A stretch of 64,000 nt of DNA from Planctomycetota bacterium (GTDB lineage Bacteria; Planctomycetota; UBA8108; SXIK01), in the NCBI GenBank assembly GCA_965223845.1, contig CBDCXR010000004.1, forward strand, positions 6,688,001-6,752,000. The letters are read 5' to 3'. The translations under genes and the position numbers were made by a program. Position 1 is the first letter of the stretch. The number at the start of each line of letters is the position of its first letter. Shown here in pieces: positions 378 through 13,419 of this stretch. Below the pieces are notes generated by a model. That model made no database searches. It had not been told where the DNA came from and worked only from the letters and a program-made list of their open reading frames with translations.

Positions 378-1367
378 ATGAAAGCGAACTTGACGGCACC
401 TGCTATCGGCGCGACTCCGTACTCGAGAGGACTCGACGGCATCCTCGAGCGCATGCGCGGAGGAGATGTGGACGGCGGCATGGGCGAGCTCTTTCGCTCG
501 CTCAAGTCGTGGCGCGCGAACGCCGCCGGAGACTGGGAAGACGTGATCGAGCGCCAGTGTCTCGCGCATCCGGTCGCCGACGCGATCTTTCAGGATCCGA
601 TGGCGTTTCATTCCTACACTCGGCCCCGGGGATATCCCGGCGACGCTGAGCTCCTCGACTACATCTACGGACTCAAGGCGAGCGAGGTCGCGACGAACGC
701 ATCGCCTCTCGGTCGCGCCGTGCACGAGTTTCTGTACGACGCGCCGGCGGCCCGAGCGGTGAGAGCGCGTCGCGAGGTGCTCGCGCGGCTCGTCGATGAA
801 ACCGCCGCACGGGTAAAGAACGCTCGTGTCCTGTCGATCGCCGCCGGACACCTTCGCGAAGCGGCTCTCTCGAGCGCCGTGCGTGAAGGAAGGCTCGGCG
901 AGTACGTCGCGCTCGACCAGGACGAGCGCAGTCTCGAGGAGATCGAGGCGAGCTACGGCTCTCTCGGCGTGCGAACGGTTCCGGGCTCCGTACGCGATCT
1001 CCTCGCTGGACGCGTCGAGTTCGCGGGCTTCGATCTCGTCTACGCGGCCGGGCTCTACGACTACCTCCAGCAGCGCACGGCGCGCCGGTTGACTCGCATC
1101 ATGTTCGACGCGCTTCGGCCGGGCGGGAGACTCCTCGTCGCCAATTTTTTGCCGGACATCGGCGACGTCGGCTTCATGGAGAGCTACATGAGCTGGCAGC
1201 TGATCTACCGGTCGCGCCCTGAGCTCCTCGACGTCGCCGAGGAGATCCCCATCGCGAGTCACGATCGGCTCCGGCTGTACACCGAGCGAAGTCGCTCGAT
1301 CCTCTTCCTCGATGTCGAGCGGAACGAAGAGAGGAGGGCGAACGATGCTTGCGAAGGAGATCTTTAA
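378..1367 (+). CDS. Class I SAM-dependent methyltransferase, PhcB-like (fatty acid methyl ester synthase family)
   Basis: 329 aa ORF with RBS-like AAGGGAG. Motifs RPRGYPGD, VLSIAAGHLRE (SAM motif I variant), FDLVYAAGLYDYL and LRPGGRLLVANF. The PhcB-like assignment is from remembered family motifs. Confidence 0.8.
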   Translation: MKANLTAPAIGATPYSRGLDGILERMRGGDVDGGMGELFRSLKSWRANAAGDWEDVIERQCLAHPVADAIFQDPMAFHSYTRPRGYPGDAELLDYIYGLKASEVATNASPLGRAVHEFLYDAPAARAVRARREVLARLVDETAARVKNARVLSIAAGHLREAALSSAVREGRLGEYVALDQDERSLEEIEASYGSLGVRTVPGSVRDLLAGRVEFAGFDLVYAAGLYDYLQQRTARRLTRIMFDALRPGGRLLVANFLPDIGDVGFMESYMSWQLIYRSRPELLDVAEEIPIASHDRLRLYTERSRSILFLDVERNEERRANDACEGDL

Positions 1368-2412
1368 TCTCGGCGGGCGCTCGACGCCGCGCGGGCTCGC
1401 GATCTTCGCCTTCGATGCGGCGCTCTACCTCGCCATCACTGCGGCCATCGTCCGGGTCGACTCGCTCTGGCTGAAGCTCGCGCTCGGCGTCGCCGGAGGC
1501 TTCGCGATCGGGTTTCTCTTCCTTCTCGGGCACGACGCCTGCCACCAGAGCCTCACGCCGCGGAAGCGGCTCAATCACGTCCTCGGTCGCCTTGCGTTTC
1601 TGCCGAGTCTCCATCCCTTCAGCCTTTGGGATCTCGGGCACAACCGCGTCCATCACCGCTTCACGAACCTGCGCGAGAAGGACTACGTCTGGGCGCCGCT
1701 CACGCTCGAAGAGTACGAGCGAGCGAGCCGCTGGCAACGTTTAGTCTATCGCTTCTACCGCACGCCGATCGGTTGTCTCTGCTACTTCCTCGTCGACATC
1801 TGGTGGCGGCGCATGTTCGCGTACGAACTGACGGTGAAGAGTCGCACGTGGACGTATCAACTCGATCGCGCCCTCGTCGCGGTGTTCATCGTCGCGCAAG
1901 TCGCGGGGATCTGGACCCTCGATCGCTGGTTCCATCCCGGTGCGGCGACCGGCGCGGGGCACACCGTGATCCTCTTCGGCAGCGCTCTCGTCCTTCCCTT
2001 CCTCGTCTGGAACGCCCTCGCGTCGTTTCTCATCTACCTCCACCACACGCATCCGACAGTGCGGTGGTACCGCGAAAAGAGCGACTGGGCGCGCGCGAGC
2101 GTGCAGCTCGAGAGCACGGTCCACACGGTGTTTCCCGGTCCGATCAATTGGCTCCTCCACCGGATCATGGAGCACACCGCCCACCATGTGAATCCGGCCA
2201 TTCCCTGCTACCACCTGAAAAAGGCGCAGGATTACATCGTCCGCCATCATCCCGACCAGGTCGTCGTCGAGCGGTGGTCGCTCCGGAAGTTCCTCGACTC
2301 CGTCCGACGCTGCAAGCTCTACGACTTCGATCGCGGCGTGTGGACGGACTACGAGGGGCGAGTGACGTCGGTATCCGCGGCGGCACCGGCCGAGACCGCA
2401 GCGAGTGCTTGA
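1345..2412 (+). CDS. Membrane fatty acid desaturase (DesA/omega-6-like)
   Basis: Three His boxes HDACH, HNRVHH and HTAHH plus TM segments. ATG at 1345 follows GAGGAGG and overlaps the upstream gene end. Confidence 0.9.
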   Translation: MLAKEIFNLGGRSTPRGLAIFAFDAALYLAITAAIVRVDSLWLKLALGVAGGFAIGFLFLLGHDACHQSLTPRKRLNHVLGRLAFLPSLHPFSLWDLGHNRVHHRFTNLREKDYVWAPLTLEEYERASRWQRLVYRFYRTPIGCLCYFLVDIWWRRMFAYELTVKSRTWTYQLDRALVAVFIVAQVAGIWTLDRWFHPGAATGAGHTVILFGSALVLPFLVWNALASFLIYLHHTHPTVRWYREKSDWARASVQLESTVHTVFPGPINWLLHRIMEHTAHHVNPAIPCYHLKKAQDYIVRHHPDQVVVERWSLRKFLDSVRRCKLYDFDRGVWTDYEGRVTSVSAAAPAETAASA

Positions 2413-2414
2413 TC

Positions 2415-5400
2415 ATGGTCTACCCGACGCTGAACGGATCCTCCGCGCGGTTGATCGCACCGCGCGACCTAGACGAGTACCTCGAGCTCTACCGGGCGAT
2501 GGTGATGGCGCGCGCGCTCGACGAAGTGGAACGCGCGCTCGTCGAACGCGGCGAGGCGCACTTCCACGTGAGCGGCGCTGGACACGAGGGCATCGCCGTC
2601 GCGAACCGTCACCTCGAACCGGAGGATTGGCTGCATCCCCACTACCGTGACAAGGCGCTTCTGCTCGCGCGGGGCGTTCCAGTCGTCCGGTTTCTCGACG
2701 CGCTCGTCTCGAACGCGCGATCGCATTCCCGGGGACGCCAGATGAGCGCTCACATGAGCGCGCCCGAGCTCCGCGTCCTGAGCACGGTCGGTCCGGTCGG
2801 AAACAACGCGCTGCAAGCGGTCGGAGTCGCCGCCGAGGTCGCGCGCGGGCCCGGGTCGCCGATCGTTTTCTGCAGCCTCGGCGACGGAACGACGCAAGAA
2901 GGCGAGGTTCTCGAGGCTGTCGCCGAGGCGGCGCGCTCGGAGCTCCCCGTTCTCTTCGTCGTCGAGGAGAATCGCTACGCGATTTCGACCGAAACCGCGG
3001 GCCGGACGTTCTACGATCTGCCGCGCGGACCCGCGTCGGAGCTCTTCGGCGTGCCGATTCTTCGCGTCGACGGCGCCGACGTCTCGGCGGCGGACCGCGT
3101 CCTCGGAGCCGCCATCGGTCGCATGCGCAGCCAGCGCTCGCCGGCGATCGTGATCTTCGAGGTCGAGCGACTCTGTAGCCACACGAATGCCGACGATGAG
3201 CGCGTCTACCGCTCGGAGAAGGAGCGGCTCGAGGCGAGGGAGTCGCGCGATCCGATTCCGGTTCTCGAGGAGCAGCTTCGGCGCTCGGGCGTCACGGAAG
3301 ACGCGCTCGGGCGCTTGCGCGACGAGGTCACAGAGTCGCTCAGCGAGGCGACGGCGTCCGCGCTCGCGGTGGGGGATCCCGAGCCCGCGCTCGACGCTCG
3401 TCCCGCCGCCTTGGCGTCGATGGGTCACGAGTACCGAGGGCGAGAGAGCGGTGAGCAACGGACGATGCTCGAAGCGATGCGTTCCGTGCTCGAAGCCTGG
3501 CTCGAGTGCGATCCTCGCGTGTCGATCTTCGGAGAGGACATCGAAGATCCGAAGGGAGATGTCTTCGGACTGACGCGCGGGCTCAGCACGCGATTCGGCG
3601 ATCGCGTCCGCAATTCGCCCCTCAGCGAATCGACGATTGTCGGGGTCGCCATCGGACGCGCCCTCGCCGGCGGACGACCTGTCGCGTGCATTCAATTCGC
3701 GGACTTCCTTCCCCTCGCGTGGAACCAGATCGCCGCCGAGCTCGGCACCATGGCGTGGCGAACGGACGGCGGCTGGGAAAGTCCGGTGCTCGTCCTCGCG
3801 CCCTGCGGCGGCTACCGGCCCGGGCTCGGACCGTTTCATGCGCAGACCTTCGAGTCGAGCCTCGCGCACGTTCCGGGCATCGACGTCGTCGTTCCGTCGA
3901 CCGCCGGCGACGCGGCGGGACTCCTGAACGCCGTGCTCGCGTCGAAGCGACCCACGGTGTTCCTCTACCCGAAGATCTGCCTCAACGATCCGTCGCGTTC
4001 GACGTCGAATGACATCGGCGCGCATTTCGTTCCGGTCGGCGTCGCTCGCCGCCTGCGTTCGGGCGACGATCTCACGCTCGTCAGTTGGGGGAGTACGATC
4101 CCTCTTTGTGAGCGGGCCGCACAGACGCTCTCGGAGGCCGGCGCGCGAGTCGATCTCTTCGATCTCCGCTCGATCGCGCCCTGGGACCGCGATGCCGTGC
4201 TCGAGTCGGCGCGGCGGACGCGCCGGCTTCTCGTCGTTCACGAGGACAACGCGACGTGCGGATTCGGCGCGGAGATCGTCGCGACCATCGCGGAGGCTTG
4301 CCCCGCGGTCGAATGCCGTCGGGTGACTCGTCCCGATACTTACGTTCCGTGCAACTTCACGAACCAGATCACGGTCCTTCCGTCGTACCGCTCGATCGTC
4401 TCGGCAGCGGCGGAGCTGGTCGATTTCGAGCTCGAGTGGCGGGATCGCGAGGTCGACGCGAGCGACGAGGTGATCGTTCCGGCGCATGGATCGAGTCCGG
4501 CGGATCAGTCGGTGAGCGTCGTCGAGTGGCTAGCCGCGCCCGGCGACGAAGTCGAAGCGGGAGCGACGATCGCCGAGGCCGAGGCGGACAAGGCGGTCTT
4601 CGAGATCAAAGCCCCGCGTCCCGGAACGATCCGGCGGCTCTGCGTCGGGCCGGGCGAGACGGTGCGCGTCGGAGAACCTCTCTACGCCCTCGAGGCCGTC
4701 GGCCGCGAGCTCGCCGGTCGACGGGCCGGGCGGGCGAGGGCGCGTCGTGAGCGGCGCGGGAACGAATCCCCGCACCTACGCCGACGTCCGCGTCGGGGCG
4801 ATGCGCCGCGACCCGGGACTCTCGCTGAACCGGCAGCGGAGCGGACCGGCGTCGTTCGGCTGGCGCCTCCGTGCTGCGCGCTCGGTTCCCGCATCGTGAC
4901 GAACGAAGAGATCGCGGCTCGGTTTCCCGATCGGAGCGCCGAGGACATCCGAACTCGAACCGGTATCGAGCGCAGGCGGCGCGTGAACGCTGACGAAGAC
5001 GCGTTCGCGCTCGCCGTCCGCGCGAGCTCTGCTGCGCTCGAGCGCGCCGGGCTCGCCGCGTCCGATCTCGATCTAGTCGTCTGCAGCACGACGACTCCGC
5101 CGCTCGCGAGCCCGACGCTCGCGTGTCGAGTGCTCGATGCGCTGTCGGAGTCGGGTCGCGCCTACGCGGAGGCGTACGACCTCAACGCCGCCTGTTCGGG
5201 GTATCTCTACGCGCTCGCGAGCGCATACGACTTTCTCTCTGCGCGTCGCGCGGGGATCGCGCTCGTTCTCACGGCCGAGGTACTCTCACCGGTCCTCGAC
5301 GAGGCAGATTTTGCTACGAGCATCCTCTTCGGCGACGCAGCATCGGCGACGATCCTTCGCGCGGGTCTCGAAGCGGGCGATGCGCGCAGCGCGGTCGGCT

Positions 5401-5843
5401 GGACCGTGAGCGGACGGCCGTTCGTGACGGCGCGCGGCGAACGTGGGTCGCTCCTCCGTGTTCCGCACGCTGGGGCCGGCTTCGCGAGCATGCAGGGTCG
5501 ACGCGTCTTCGGCGAGGCGGTGCGCGCGATGAGCGATGCCCTTCACCGGGCCGCGAGCGCTGCGGGCAGCTCGGTCGGTGATCTCGACTGGATCGTGCCG
5601 CACCAGGCGAACTCTCGGATCATCGAGGCGGTGACGCATCGCCTCGGGGGCGATCCGGTACGCGTCGTCGACTGGATCCGCGACTGGGGGAACACCTCTT
5701 CGACGAGTATCCCCCTCTGCCTCGAGAGGCTCGCGCTCGAGCTCGGCGGCGGCGAGAGACTGGGGCTCTGCGCCTTTGGTGGCGGGCGGACCGCGGGGGC
5801 GGCGGTGCTCGAAACGAGACGGACTGGCCCTCCGGGTGCGTGA
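2415..5843 (+). CDS. Fusion protein: 2-oxoacid dehydrogenase E1alpha + E1beta + lipoyl domain + FabH-like ketoacyl synthase III
   Basis: ThDP motif GDGTTQEG...EEN; E1beta motifs GEDI..PKGDVFG, NSPLSE and GPFHAQT; lipoyl Lys in EADKAVFE; KAS III triad AACSG / PHQAN / GNTSS. Start ATG 2415 is 2 nt after the desaturase stop. Confidence 0.9.
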   Translation: MVYPTLNGSSARLIAPRDLDEYLELYRAMVMARALDEVERALVERGEAHFHVSGAGHEGIAVANRHLEPEDWLHPHYRDKALLLARGVPVVRFLDALVSNARSHSRGRQMSAHMSAPELRVLSTVGPVGNNALQAVGVAAEVARGPGSPIVFCSLGDGTTQEGEVLEAVAEAARSELPVLFVVEENRYAISTETAGRTFYDLPRGPASELFGVPILRVDGADVSAADRVLGAAIGRMRSQRSPAIVIFEVERLCSHTNADDERVYRSEKERLEARESRDPIPVLEEQLRRSGVTEDALGRLRDEVTESLSEATASALAVGDPEPALDARPAALASMGHEYRGRESGEQRTMLEAMRSVLEAWLECDPRVSIFGEDIEDPKGDVFGLTRGLSTRFGDRVRNSPLSESTIVGVAIGRALAGGRPVACIQFADFLPLAWNQIAAELGTMAWRTDGGWESPVLVLAPCGGYRPGLGPFHAQTFESSLAHVPGIDVVVPSTAGDAAGLLNAVLASKRPTVFLYPKICLNDPSRSTSNDIGAHFVPVGVARRLRSGDDLTLVSWGSTIPLCERAAQTLSEAGARVDLFDLRSIAPWDRDAVLESARRTRRLLVVHEDNATCGFGAEIVATIAEACPAVECRRVTRPDTYVPCNFTNQITVLPSYRSIVSAAAELVDFELEWRDREVDASDEVIVPAHGSSPADQSVSVVEWLAAPGDEVEAGATIAEAEADKAVFEIKAPRPGTIRRLCVGPGETVRVGEPLYALEAVGRELAGRRAGRARARRERRGNESPHLRRRPRRGDAPRPGTLAEPAAERTGVVRLAPPCCALGSRIVTNEEIAARFPDRSAEDIRTRTGIERRRRVNADEDAFALAVRASSAALERAGLAASDLDLVVCSTTTPPLASPTLACRVLDALSESGRAYAEAYDLNAACSGYLYALASAYDFLSARRAGIALVLTAEVLSPVLDEADFATSILFGDAASATILRAGLEAGDARSAVGWTVSGRPFVTARGERGSLLRVPHAGAGFASMQGRRVFGEAVRAMSDALHRAASAAGSSVGDLDWIVPHQANSRIIEAVTHRLGGDPVRVVDWIRDWGNTSSTSIPLCLERLALELGGGERLGLCAFGGGRTAGAAVLETRRTGPPGA

Positions 5844-6013
5844 TGCGAGCGCGCTTCGCGCGGAGGTCTGCGGGGGCGTCGCGATCGCGATTGACTTCCG
5901 TTCGGGCGAGGAAATAATCGCATCCTTCGTGCCGGGGCCGCCGCGACGGATCGGGGTCCGATCCGCGGGCCGCCGGCATCGCTCGCCCCCGCTCTCTCCC
6001 GAGGCCACCCGCG

Positions 6014-11976: not shown

Positions 11977-13419
11977 GTGTATTCGAAATCGCCCACTCTC
12001 GGTGCCATCGCTCTCATCGCCGGCTTTCTCGCGGCCGCATCCACTCGCGCCGAGGAGCCGGCCGTTCGCATCGGTACGAACGCGGGAGAGCTTCACCCCG
12101 ACGTTCTTCTTCCCACGATCGACGGCGGAACGCTCCGTCTCTCCGATTATCGCGGGAAGAAGATCTTCCTCTTTCACTTCGCCTCGTGGTGAGCGGGCTG
12201 CCGACGCATTCTGCCCGTGTGGCAGAAAACGCTCGCGCCTCTCGTAACGGCGGGGAAGATCGTCGCCATCGGGGTCGTTCAAGAGCAGCACGCCGATCGC
12301 GCGCGACTCTACCGTCAGTGGCGAGAGCTCGATTGGCCGATTGCGATCGACTCGCTCAATCTCCTGGGTCACCGTGCGGTTCCCATCCCGATGGGGATCG
12401 ACGAGCACGGCGTCGTTCGCACGCCGAAGCTGAAACCGAACGAGATCGAAGAGTTTGTCGCGCTCGAGTTCGCGGCCCCGGGTCCGCTCCCGAAGGAGTT
12501 CCGCGCAACGCTGCCAGACCCCATCGCGCTCGCGGCTCGCGCTCGTTTCGCGCTGACGGCGGAGTCGTGGTTCGATCTCGGCGATGCGCTCTTTCTCTTT
12601 GGCGGTGAGTCGCGTCTCGGTGCAGCGATCGACGCGTACCGCCGGGGTCTCGAACGAGAGCCGAACGCCGCCCGGGGGCAGTTCCGTCTCGGCGTCGCGC
12701 TGCGGCGTCGGCACGATTCCTACGGGAGGACGAAGGGTGACGCCCAGGCCGCGGTCGACGCGTGGGGACGCGCGCTCGCGCTCGATCCGGGACAGTACAT
12801 CTGGCGCCGGCGGATTCAGCAGTACGGACCGCGTCTCGACAAGCCCTACAACTTCTACTTTTGGGTCGAAGAAGCGCGAAAGGAGATCCGCGCGCGGGGC
12901 GGAGCGCCGATCTCGCTCTCCGCCGAGCCGCGTGGCTCGGAGATCGCACCGCCGCGGAGCTCGAGCGACGCCGAGGATCGCCTCGCTCCGAAGGATGTCG
13001 ATCCGAAGCGCGGCCTTCCCGTCGACCGGAAGCGCCTCGTCGGCATCGACACGATCGTCACCCCGGCGCGCATTCGACCCGGTGAACGCGTTCGCGTCCG
13101 CGTGATCCTCCGGCTAGATGCGAAGCAACGCCCGTACTGGAACAACGAGAGCGCGGGGCTCTCCGTTTGGGCGAAGGAGTCGGGCGAATTTCGCATCGAG
13201 GAGGGCGAGTTTCGCTACGCGCCGCCCAAGTCCCCCGAGACCCGCGAGGAACGGGTGCTCGAGTTCGAGGCGGCCGTCGGCGCGGAGGCGTCGGGTCGAC
13301 TGAGCATCCCCGCGTACGCCGCATACGATGTGTGTCTCGACGCCGAGGGAGTTTGCTACCGCTACCGGCAGGACTTCGAGATCTCGGTCGAGGTCGATCC
13401 GGCGGCGGCGAAGATCTGA
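11977..13419 (+). CDS. Putative secreted selenoprotein: redoxin/TlpA-like domain (UxxC) + TPR + DsbD-N-like domain; in-frame UGA at 12190-12192
   Basis: GTG start after AAGGAG and a signal peptide. LSDYRGKKIFLFHFASW-TGA-AGCR continues in frame into ORF 12217..13419. A SECIS-like hairpin follows the UGA. Confidence 0.8.
12191..12234 (+). promoter_or_regulatory. Putative bacterial SECIS element
   Basis: Stem TTCTGCC (12209-12215)/GGCAGAA (12221-12227) with G-containing loop CGTGT about 23 nt after the UGA; lower stem GAGCG/CGCTC. Confidence 0.7.

Follow-up and report, generated by a model that had tools for sequence, protein, structure and literature searches.

A fusion of E1, lipoyl and ketosynthase III domains, encoded behind a methyltransferase and a desaturase in a Planctomycetota bacterium, is a candidate CoA-independent starter synthase for fatty acids

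In quinocarcin biosynthesis, QncN/QncL use a dehydrogenase-like E1 and a lipoyl arm to bring a carbon unit onto a carrier protein independently of CoA, the donor being a ketose and the peptidyl carrier being loaded by an E2-like acyltransferase. The textbook route to branched-chain priming of fatty-acid synthesis relies on a branched-chain 2-oxoacid dehydrogenase complex (E1/E2/E3) together with a stand-alone FabH (PMC9328018; bioRxiv 10.1101/2025.09.03.673897), and the accessible portions of these two sources make no mention of an E1-lipoyl-KSIII fusion. PhcB of Ralstonia has its role within the phcBSRQ quorum-sensing operon (PMC7694676), and the Xanthomonas signal DSF provides a precedent for a branched FabH primer that ends up in an unsaturated signal (PMC5011732).

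The locus considered here lies in a window of 64,000 nucleotides, the whole stretch of DNA that was analysed. A methyltransferase, a desaturase and a large fusion gene are co-oriented on the + strand and tightly coupled, which confirms the packing reported in a first-pass annotation: the desaturase ATG at 1345 creates a 23-nt overlap with the methyltransferase, and the fusion ATG at 2415 lies 2 nt past the desaturase stop. The three genes are probably co-transcribed; the gene 3' of the fusion is glyS, preceded by a promoter-like site. A longer desaturase start at 1312 was dropped, there being no ribosome-binding-like site at that position, and a horizontal island was ruled out, GC and GC3 being without anomaly. 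The features are as follows.

378..1367, + strand: class I SAM methyltransferase (P0001, 329 aa) with motifs PRGYPGD (83-89) and AAGHLRE (155-161); uncharacterised family, often auto-named like PhcB
1332..1337, + strand: AGGAGG ribosome-binding-like site within the methyltransferase 3' end, a sequence match that sets the desaturase start at 1345
1345..2412, + strand: membrane His-box fatty acid desaturase (P0002, 355 aa) with HDACH (63-67), HNRVHH (99-104) and HTAHH (277-281); omega-6/Delta12-like going by relatives' names
2415..5843, + strand: E1alpha-E1beta-lipoyl-KSIII fusion (P0003, 1142 aa), whole gene, starting with ATG at 2415
2490..3383, + strand: E1 alpha domain of the fusion, aa 26-323 (Pfam E1_dh, 26-323), with ThDP motif GDG...N (156-186) and H256; nearest solved alpha chain is the Thermus branched-chain E1
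3459..4427, + strand: E1 beta domains, aa 349-671 (Pfam Transket_pyr, 349-522; Transketolase_C, 542-648), with E405, QFADF (427-431) and H475
4467..4688, + strand: lipoyl domain, aa 685-758 (Pfam Biotin_lipoyl, 685-758), with K726 (codon 4590-4592)
4881..5813, + strand: FabH-like KSIII, aa 823-1133 (Pfam ACP_syn_III, 921-987; ACP_syn_III_C, 1049-1133), with C927 (codon 5193-5195), H1063 and N1093 intact
5891..5918, + strand: promoter-like site TTGACT-16-AATAAT before glyS, a consensus match only; likely end of the unit

The fusion resembles the textbook route in the fold and motifs of its E1 alpha and beta parts, its lipoyl domain, its Cys-His-Asn KSIII and its predicted net product. It departs from that route in being a single polypeptide, in which Pfam and NCBIfam detect neither an E2 catalytic domain nor an E3-binding domain, and in having a KSIII without the residues that contact the adenine of CoA. 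With QncN/QncL it would share delivery by E1 and lipoyl arm without CoA, the acceptor here being a ketosynthase cysteine.

The E1/lipoyl/FabH reading of the first-pass annotation was borne out, every domain call lying above its Pfam cut-off. The protein also reaches the cut-off of NF006829 (250.2 bits against 249), falls below that of TIGR00747 (216.6 bits against 292.1), and its modelled KSIII matches FabH with a TM score of 0.9 of the target. The ThDP-binding E1 residues G156, N186, H256, E405 and H475 are kept in all 190 aligned fusions, as are the lipoyl K726 and the KSIII C927, while H1063 and N1093 are present in 189, the remaining row being gapped. The stretch E-A-D-K726-A aligns with E2 lipoyl domains, making K726 the predicted acceptor lysine of a domain that would be lipoylated there. 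A 2-oxoacid-derived starter, as proposed at first pass, is supported.

An assembly artefact can be dismissed, since E1, lipoyl and KSIII domains are all present in each of the 119 non-self matches listed, which are 50-59% identical (P0011 being incomplete). It is carried by Planctomycetota, Verrucomicrobiota, Kiritimatiellota, Spirochaetota and some Rhizobium, and its tree largely tracks host lineage, with 9 phylum changes compared with 35.4 when shuffled; no plasmid record covers 80% of it. No description of an E1-lipoyl-FabH fusion was found in the literature searched, most subscription journals lying outside its scope, and the portions seen of PMC12664062, PMC4971678, PMC5998023 and PMC9102662 added nothing decisive. 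It is the fusion enzyme, more than the cluster, that is novel at this locus.

What sets the KSIII apart is the loss of the CoA-adenine clamp. Positions T28, W32 and R151 of the E. coli enzyme correspond to R840, D844 and F966 in the fusion, and the equivalent residues are absent from every one of 169 distinct fusions, probably through one single inherited event, compared with W32 in 13, R151 in 14 and T28 in 12 of 14 hand-picked stand-alone KSIII controls. The W32 position is mostly acidic instead (D or E in 151/169). In 23 of the 169 fusions, P0004 included, a Trp stands four residues before it and might partly compensate for the lost W32. The R249 position, to which we ascribe a presumed role in ACP binding, is kept in 159/169 fusions. 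N210 was tried as a further marker of lost CoA binding and dropped, because it is present in 0/14 controls. W32 and R151 are described as stacking the adenine of CoA (PMC4606726); a KSIII without these residues probably bypasses acyl-CoA, and we regard this part of our proposal, taken alone, as quite probable.

Could CoA nevertheless remain an intermediate, with the KSIII acting as a lipoyl-to-CoA acyltransferase in place of E2, or being fed acyl-CoA from a separate E2? The phosphopantetheine-binding positions R36 and N247 of the E. coli enzyme are indeed mostly kept (129/169 and 159/169). Yet the adenine-binding residues are missing throughout, and the Cys-His-Asn triad is complete in 169/169 distinct fusions, including the condensing H/N pair, for which a pure transferase would have no use. 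We consider this explanation very improbable.

We therefore favour, with some reserve, a reading of the fusion as a self-contained fatty-acid starter synthase in which an acyl group, most likely branched, passes from lipoyl arm to KSIII without acyl-CoA. The E1 alpha and beta parts, whose motifs are present, would decarboxylate a 2-oxo acid, presumably branched-chain, on thiamine diphosphate; the lipoyl arm expected on K726 would then be reductively acylated. With no E2 domain in between, C927 of the KSIII would take the acyl group straight from the arm, a transfer with which the clamp loss is consistent. Condensation with malonyl-ACP from the host would follow on the KSIII, and the host's FAS II would extend the product, most likely to iso/anteiso fatty acids. 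Finally, a host E3 would re-oxidise the lipoyl arm in trans. The 45 called and scanned genes of the window include no ACP, as the first-pass annotation had already stated, and no E2; no E3 was recognised among the window genes, where the only pyridine-nucleotide oxidoreductase-type matches are an FAD oxidoreductase and a glutamate-synthase small subunit.

Which 2-oxo acid would enter this sequence? Among solved structures, the nearest E1 alpha and beta chains are both branched-chain E1, the alpha ranking being led by Thermus branched-chain (1.7e-41), followed by human branched-chain (2e-28) and pyruvate E1 (2.6e-24), and a GRQM..H segment matches the Thermus and human branched-chain alpha chains. 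However, the P. putida branched-chain alpha chain ranks last, under the pyruvate E1s, and the top NCBIfam E1 models are pyruvate-type, every one under its cut-off, so that assignment to the branched-chain class is tentative. Imagine, then, that the fusion were a general pyruvate-fed initiator, passing acetyl-lipoyl on to acetoacetyl-ACP and straight-chain products. The pyruvate-type models would fit, as would the many carriers among the Planctomycetota, whose fatty acids are mostly straight-chain. E1 position 113, moreover, varies by lineage (H 121 / F 62 / M 7), so substrates may differ among lineages. Against this stand the branched-chain identity of the nearest solved chains, the GRQM..H match, and the position of E. 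coli F87, which in the fusions is mostly T, S or V and F in 0/184 rows, a small residue here presumably giving a roomier pocket. Lipid data from two carrier groups also point to iso acids, and a pyruvate-fed initiator seems to us improbable. A branched-chain 2-oxo acid is the predicted, sequence-based substrate in the starter-synthase reading.

These lipid links are to genera or families. Martinezella, the genus to which R. freirei is now assigned, is described with iso-C15:0 3-OH, which is not listed in the descriptions of Arminella and Gillisella (PMC13077888; PMC7656272 Table 3); R. leguminosarum has 1.2% iso-C17:0, R. freirei itself being absent from that table (PMC7656272 Table 3). The fusion also occurs in Pontiellaceae, a family whose cultured Pontiella produce i-C12/14/18 (PMC7356697). 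The fusion gene comes after olsE (565 bits, cut-off 475), which encodes a membrane-lipid hydroxylase, both in R. freirei and in a second Rhizobium. If the starter-synthase reading is true, the fusion would give fatty-acid synthesis a second point of entry, encoded by one gene and independent of the acyl-CoA pool. In PVC bacteria and spirochaetes, whose iso/anteiso lipids are taxonomic markers, it would be a candidate source of these lipids; in tropici-group rhizobia it would give a single-gene explanation of iso-C15:0 3-OH, and in E. coli a one-gene branched-primer module of use for producing branched fatty acids.

The methyltransferase belongs to a large family (1,385 representatives at E<=1e-30). 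It scores 24.6 bits in Pfam, under the cut-off of 27, and has no NCBIfam match; its model (pLDDT 91.8) has a class I SAM methyltransferase fold and aligns with members of that class at Z 15-20. The nearest solved structure, 3ocj (Z 20.0, rmsd 3.0, 245 aligned), is that of an uncharacterised protein, Atlas matches are unnamed methyltransferase clusters only, and the solved-structure and NCBIfam searches yield no function. Among 119 listed matches, 27 are named '3-hydroxypalmitic acid methyl ester biosynthesis protein' by JGI, which we take to be PhcB's orthology label; no PhcB sequence appears among the database matches, and no Ralstonia row among the plasmid matches listed. Members of the family recur with acyl-ACP machinery and sensor genes, and relatives have a divergent GGDEF-EAL gene upstream. 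One member is fused to a desaturase-ACP (P0475), another to a PKS dehydratase-PPTase (P0476), and in Deinococcus one is in the same operon as FeeM and an acyl-ACP desaturase. The desaturases of P0475 and Deinococcus were rejected as orthologues of ours, being without similarity to it and of other types.

The methyltransferase resembles PhcB in being a SAM methyltransferase whose relatives carry the automatically assigned methyl-ester-synthesis name and adjoin sensor genes, and differs in having no phcS/phcR-like genes, cognate sensor kinase or regulator downstream (377 bp are visible upstream). The PhcB-like assignment made at first pass is plausible on these grounds, and the names together with the recurrence beside acyl-ACP and sensor genes make a methyl-ester signal a plausible product of the family. 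The size of the family and its acyl-ACP and sensor ties suggest that fatty-ester signalling reaches well past Ralstonia.

The desaturase matches FA_desaturase (PF00487) at 102.8 bits (cut-off 29.7), and its three His boxes, invariant in 120/120 aligned rows, are those of acyl-lipid omega-6 (Delta12) desaturases. Many relatives are named omega-6/Delta12 desaturase by JGI, hence a putative Delta12/omega-6-like assignment; unlike the known enzymes, it scores far under the NCBIfam DesA/DesB cut-offs. No link between PhcB and a desaturase was found in the literature searched. Together, desaturase and methyltransferase probably form a module making an unsaturated fatty acid methyl ester.

Do the three genes belong to one dedicated pathway, in which the fusion provides a branched primer, the desaturase unsaturates the chain and the methyltransferase releases it as a methyl ester, giving a diffusible signal? 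A conserved three-gene pathway, as proposed at first pass, is not supported: tblastn/phmmer and profile HMMs run on 17,958 six-frame segments, with positive controls found, detected neither partner near the fusion in any of 80 loci (80 kept out of 578 stretches; 36 Planctomycetota; 62 with at least 2.1 kb upstream), and a conserved cluster is rejected at family level. Only L057, on a long branch, lies near our fusion in the tree, so 0/80 carries little information on the clade nearest to it. The desaturase family occurs in none of seven plasmid methyltransferase loci, and the fusion is annotated in none. Among the 119 listed fusion matches one pairs with a partner, on a same-sized contig; the close relatives P0008 and P0011 do not. 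The contig concerned, of 266,593 bp, is the only other to have the triple, inferred from matching size alone: it holds the best match for the fusion and the second or third for the other two genes, all 59% identical. Matching sizes alone likewise make it probable that two other contigs (266,593 and 2,783 bp) carry methyltransferase and desaturase together. The co-occurrence check set beforehand was therefore negative at family level and positive for one close relative only.

In favour of a dedicated pathway, besides this probable co-location, are the 23-nt overlap and 2-nt gap, the methyltransferase fusions P0475 and P0476, the Deinococcus operon, a LuxI/FeeM-like domain on two of 190 fusions, and the feeding of a branched signal by FabH primer choice in Xanthomonas (PMC5011732). 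RpfF, however, makes DSF as a free acid, and the scanned window genes include nothing RpfF-like; nor does the window hold a sensor, ACP or thioesterase. Equal identities of 59% fit plain retained synteny too. Delta12-type desaturases usually work on lipid-bound chains, so a dedicated pathway would need further steps. On balance we think such a pathway unlikely. Under the starter-synthase reading, the fusion would be a stand-alone membrane-lipid gene in most genomes and in this lineage would sit behind a separate two-gene module of desaturase and carboxyl methyltransferase.

The extra LuxI/FeeM-like domain of the two fusions implies that the fusion module is open to recruitment for specialised products. 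One may picture a widespread family of lipoyl-to-ketosynthase initiators without E2 or CoA, recruited here with the desaturase and PhcB-like methyltransferase for a branched unsaturated methyl ester signal, its LuxI/FeeM-fused copies making branched acyl amides or lactones; this combined reading is speculative, and we judge it rather unlikely as a whole. Elsewhere the neighbours of the fusion are lineage-specific and mostly housekeeping, and in one locus, L051, a lipoate ligase lies directly upstream.

The first-pass annotation described three tightly packed genes near the start of the window, and the coordinates agree:

378-1367, + strand, methyltransferase (P0001)
1345-2412, + strand, desaturase (P0002), overlapping the methyltransferase by 23 nt
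2415-5843, + strand, fusion protein of 1142 aa (P0003), following the desaturase after a 2-nt gap

The next gene is glyS, preceded by a promoter-like site. As also reported at first pass, the 45 called genes of the window include no ACP gene; neither do they include an E2 or a recognisable E3. In the window fusion, E1 alpha, E1 beta, a lipoyl domain and both halves of a FabH-like ketosynthase (KSIII) exceed the Pfam cut-offs, with no E2 core found by Pfam. Each domain is well folded in the predicted model (mean pLDDT 86.3; disordered linker at about 765-811), which matches structures of branched-chain E1 beta and FabH.

Judged by sequence, the fusion is a member of a family. Of 8,000 candidates scored in a protein search, 2,063 pass 1e-50, and the E1-lipoyl-KSIII layout recurs in all 119 non-self rows among the matches listed. 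A full-text literature search, with subscription journals and supplements outside its scope, returned no account of such a fusion. Scanning one genome per species matched at least 592 stretches (578 confirmed), from which we kept 80 loci: by submitter's title, 36 Planctomycetota, 20 Verrucomicrobiota, 10 Kiritimatiellota, 10 Spirochaetota, 3 Rhizobium and 1 Chloroflexota. The KSIII domain is complete in 70; most of the remainder are cut off where the contig stops. On a tree built from 81 rows, namely 70 loci no shorter than 1,050 aa and 11 selected matches, 9 phylum changes are required, compared with 35.4 when labels are shuffled, so that the gene looks lineage-resident. The Rhizobium fusions (L073 8763-13303, L075 and L077) form a long branch among planctomycete copies.

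Is the three-gene unit conserved? Profiles from 120 desaturases and 261 methyltransferases, run on six frames of the 80 loci, recovered all positive controls and no relative of either partner at any locus; in 62 loci the upstream sequence extends for 2.1 kb or more. Of the genes immediately next to the fusion, 78 were scanned, one for each cluster; most are unrelated genes, e.g. aconitase, SerRS, ThiC and LpxB, the lipid- or lipoate-related exceptions being OlsE, LpxB, lipoate ligase, glycine-cleavage P protein, a PEMT-like protein and a short-chain dehydrogenase. As a conserved cluster, then, the unit does not hold up. It is also doubtful that fusion, desaturase and methyltransferase form a dedicated signal pathway: neither partner occurs at those 80 loci, although each gene's list of 119 best matches has one entry on a 266,593 bp contig, and one methyltransferase and one desaturase match share contig size 2,783. 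These equal sizes suggest one further contig with the triple and two with the pair. The 80 loci hold almost no close relative of P0003, and the zero count therefore bears little on its own small clade, where the genes may be linked.

All catalytic positions are fixed across 190 aligned fusion rows (some duplicated between match lists). With KSIII domains mapped onto E. coli FabH, 169 of 169 distinct fusions keep the triad and none has equivalents of T28, W32 or R151, although 23 carry a Trp four residues before the W32 position. In FabH, W32 and R151 stack the CoA adenine (PMC4606726, in excerpt). Stand-alone controls retain W32 in 13/14, R151 in 14/14 and T28 in 12/14, a comparison that hand-picking may flatter: the 14 genes, one per genus, came from 60 of 350 records similar to the fusion's domain, and within the span used for picking, Legionella, Nocardia, Paracoccus, Roseateles, Arthrobacter and Listeria were passed over, two of which are divergent and match weakly. 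N210, which does not tell fusions from controls, was dropped. The clamp was probably lost in one event, and on the simplest reading the acyl donor would no longer be CoA and would instead be the fusion's own lipoyl arm. The protein is predicted to work like a branched-chain dehydrogenase plus FabH but belongs strictly to neither system, because it has no E2 and no CoA clamp. The portions seen of two papers on verrucomicrobial branched lipids give an acyl-CoA route only. We regard as the best explanation, and as somewhat probable, that the fusion is a self-contained fatty-acid starter synthase in which the lipoyl arm would feed KSIII, bypassing acyl-CoA.

In a ranking that is not clean, the E1 comes out nearest to the branched-chain enzymes of Thermus and human. 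Its position 113, which may track keto-acid preference, is His in 121/190 rows (including the window copy and Rhizobium and spirochaete examples) and Phe in 62/190 (Kiritimatiellales and Pirellulales examples). Of 323 near-invariant columns, the window fusion differs at 17 (the median is 7), among them aa 1024 and 1125; these departures include Arg at the E. coli F308 position, found in 1/169, and an altered pocket or decay is possible.

What might the fusion make? Directly upstream of the fusion, R. freirei and a pair of Rhizobium sp. (L073, L075, L077) carry a fatty acid hydroxylase gene, which scores as olsE above cut-off in the two loci scanned, those of R. freirei and one other Rhizobium (OlsE role: PMC12971839, in part). 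R. freirei is now placed in Martinezella, whose description has iso-C15:0 3-OH, unlike those of Arminella and Gillisella (passages of PMC13077888). That acid makes up 1.1-14.0% in six tropici-group strains and is absent from R. leguminosarum, which has 1.2% iso-C17:0 (PMC7656272, Table 3). Pontiellaceae bins contain the fusion, and cultured Pontiella produce i-C12, i-C14 and i-C18 (PMC7356697, in extract). These links are two lineage-level coincidences. Planctomycetes have mainly straight-chain fatty acids, and a branched role leaves the large planctomycete group of carriers unexplained. Some copies probably serve specialised products, as suggested by an extension of roughly 260 residues, similar to LuxI/FeeM acyltransferases, in 2/190 fusions. 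In these two (P0110, P0111) the addition is C-terminal to E1-lipoyl-KSIII, has LuxI/FeeM acyltransferases as Atlas look-alikes (scores 0.93-0.96) and no Pfam match.

The methyltransferase family numbers 5,769 representatives at 1e-3. Among near matches of P0001, 27/119 bear an automatically assigned methyl-ester-synthesis name; the nearest solved fold, 3ocj, is uncharacterised. Six new representatives reach 430 aa or more, including P0475 (Delta9-type desaturase and ACP, then the methyltransferase-family domain) and P0476 (PKS dehydratase and PPTase-like region, then that domain). Rhizobium accounts for 127 of 144 plasmid matches. Among seven plasmid loci opened, the gene diverges from a GGDEF-EAL gene in four (L082, L083, L101, L104), probably one rhizobial lineage; the two could possibly form an undescribed signal-receptor pair. 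Of the others, one adjoins a kinase/regulator pair, one is broken, and one (L100 2458-5816, Deinococcus actinosclerus plasmid) holds, in a single operon, an acyl-ACP desaturase, a FeeM-like N-acyl synthase and a pair of methyltransferases, of which the last belongs to the P0001 family although it is annotated CheR. Three unrelated desaturase types thus accompany the family, which supports an unsaturated methyl ester as its product, a proposal to which we give an even chance.

The His boxes of P0002 are intact, and its relatives occur in Cupriavidus, Ramlibacter and Solimonas. The single desaturase plasmid locus opened (L081 7914-8996, Paraburkholderia sprentiae) places a 42% relative between cyoABCD (cyoD side) and nifHDK (nifH side), with no methyltransferase there.

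At 11977-13419 (+) in the window, two ORFs in one frame are split by TGA at 12190-12192; read through, they give W-U-A-G-C at a redoxin active site and match NCBIfam 'ResA-like WAxxUGC' at 1e-18, below cut-off, a probable selenoprotein. On a Streptomyces xanthii plasmid (L084 9944-12193), a fused E1 alpha/beta precedes an NRPS whose start matches the query's lipoyl region, possibly a lipoyl-loaded NRPS.
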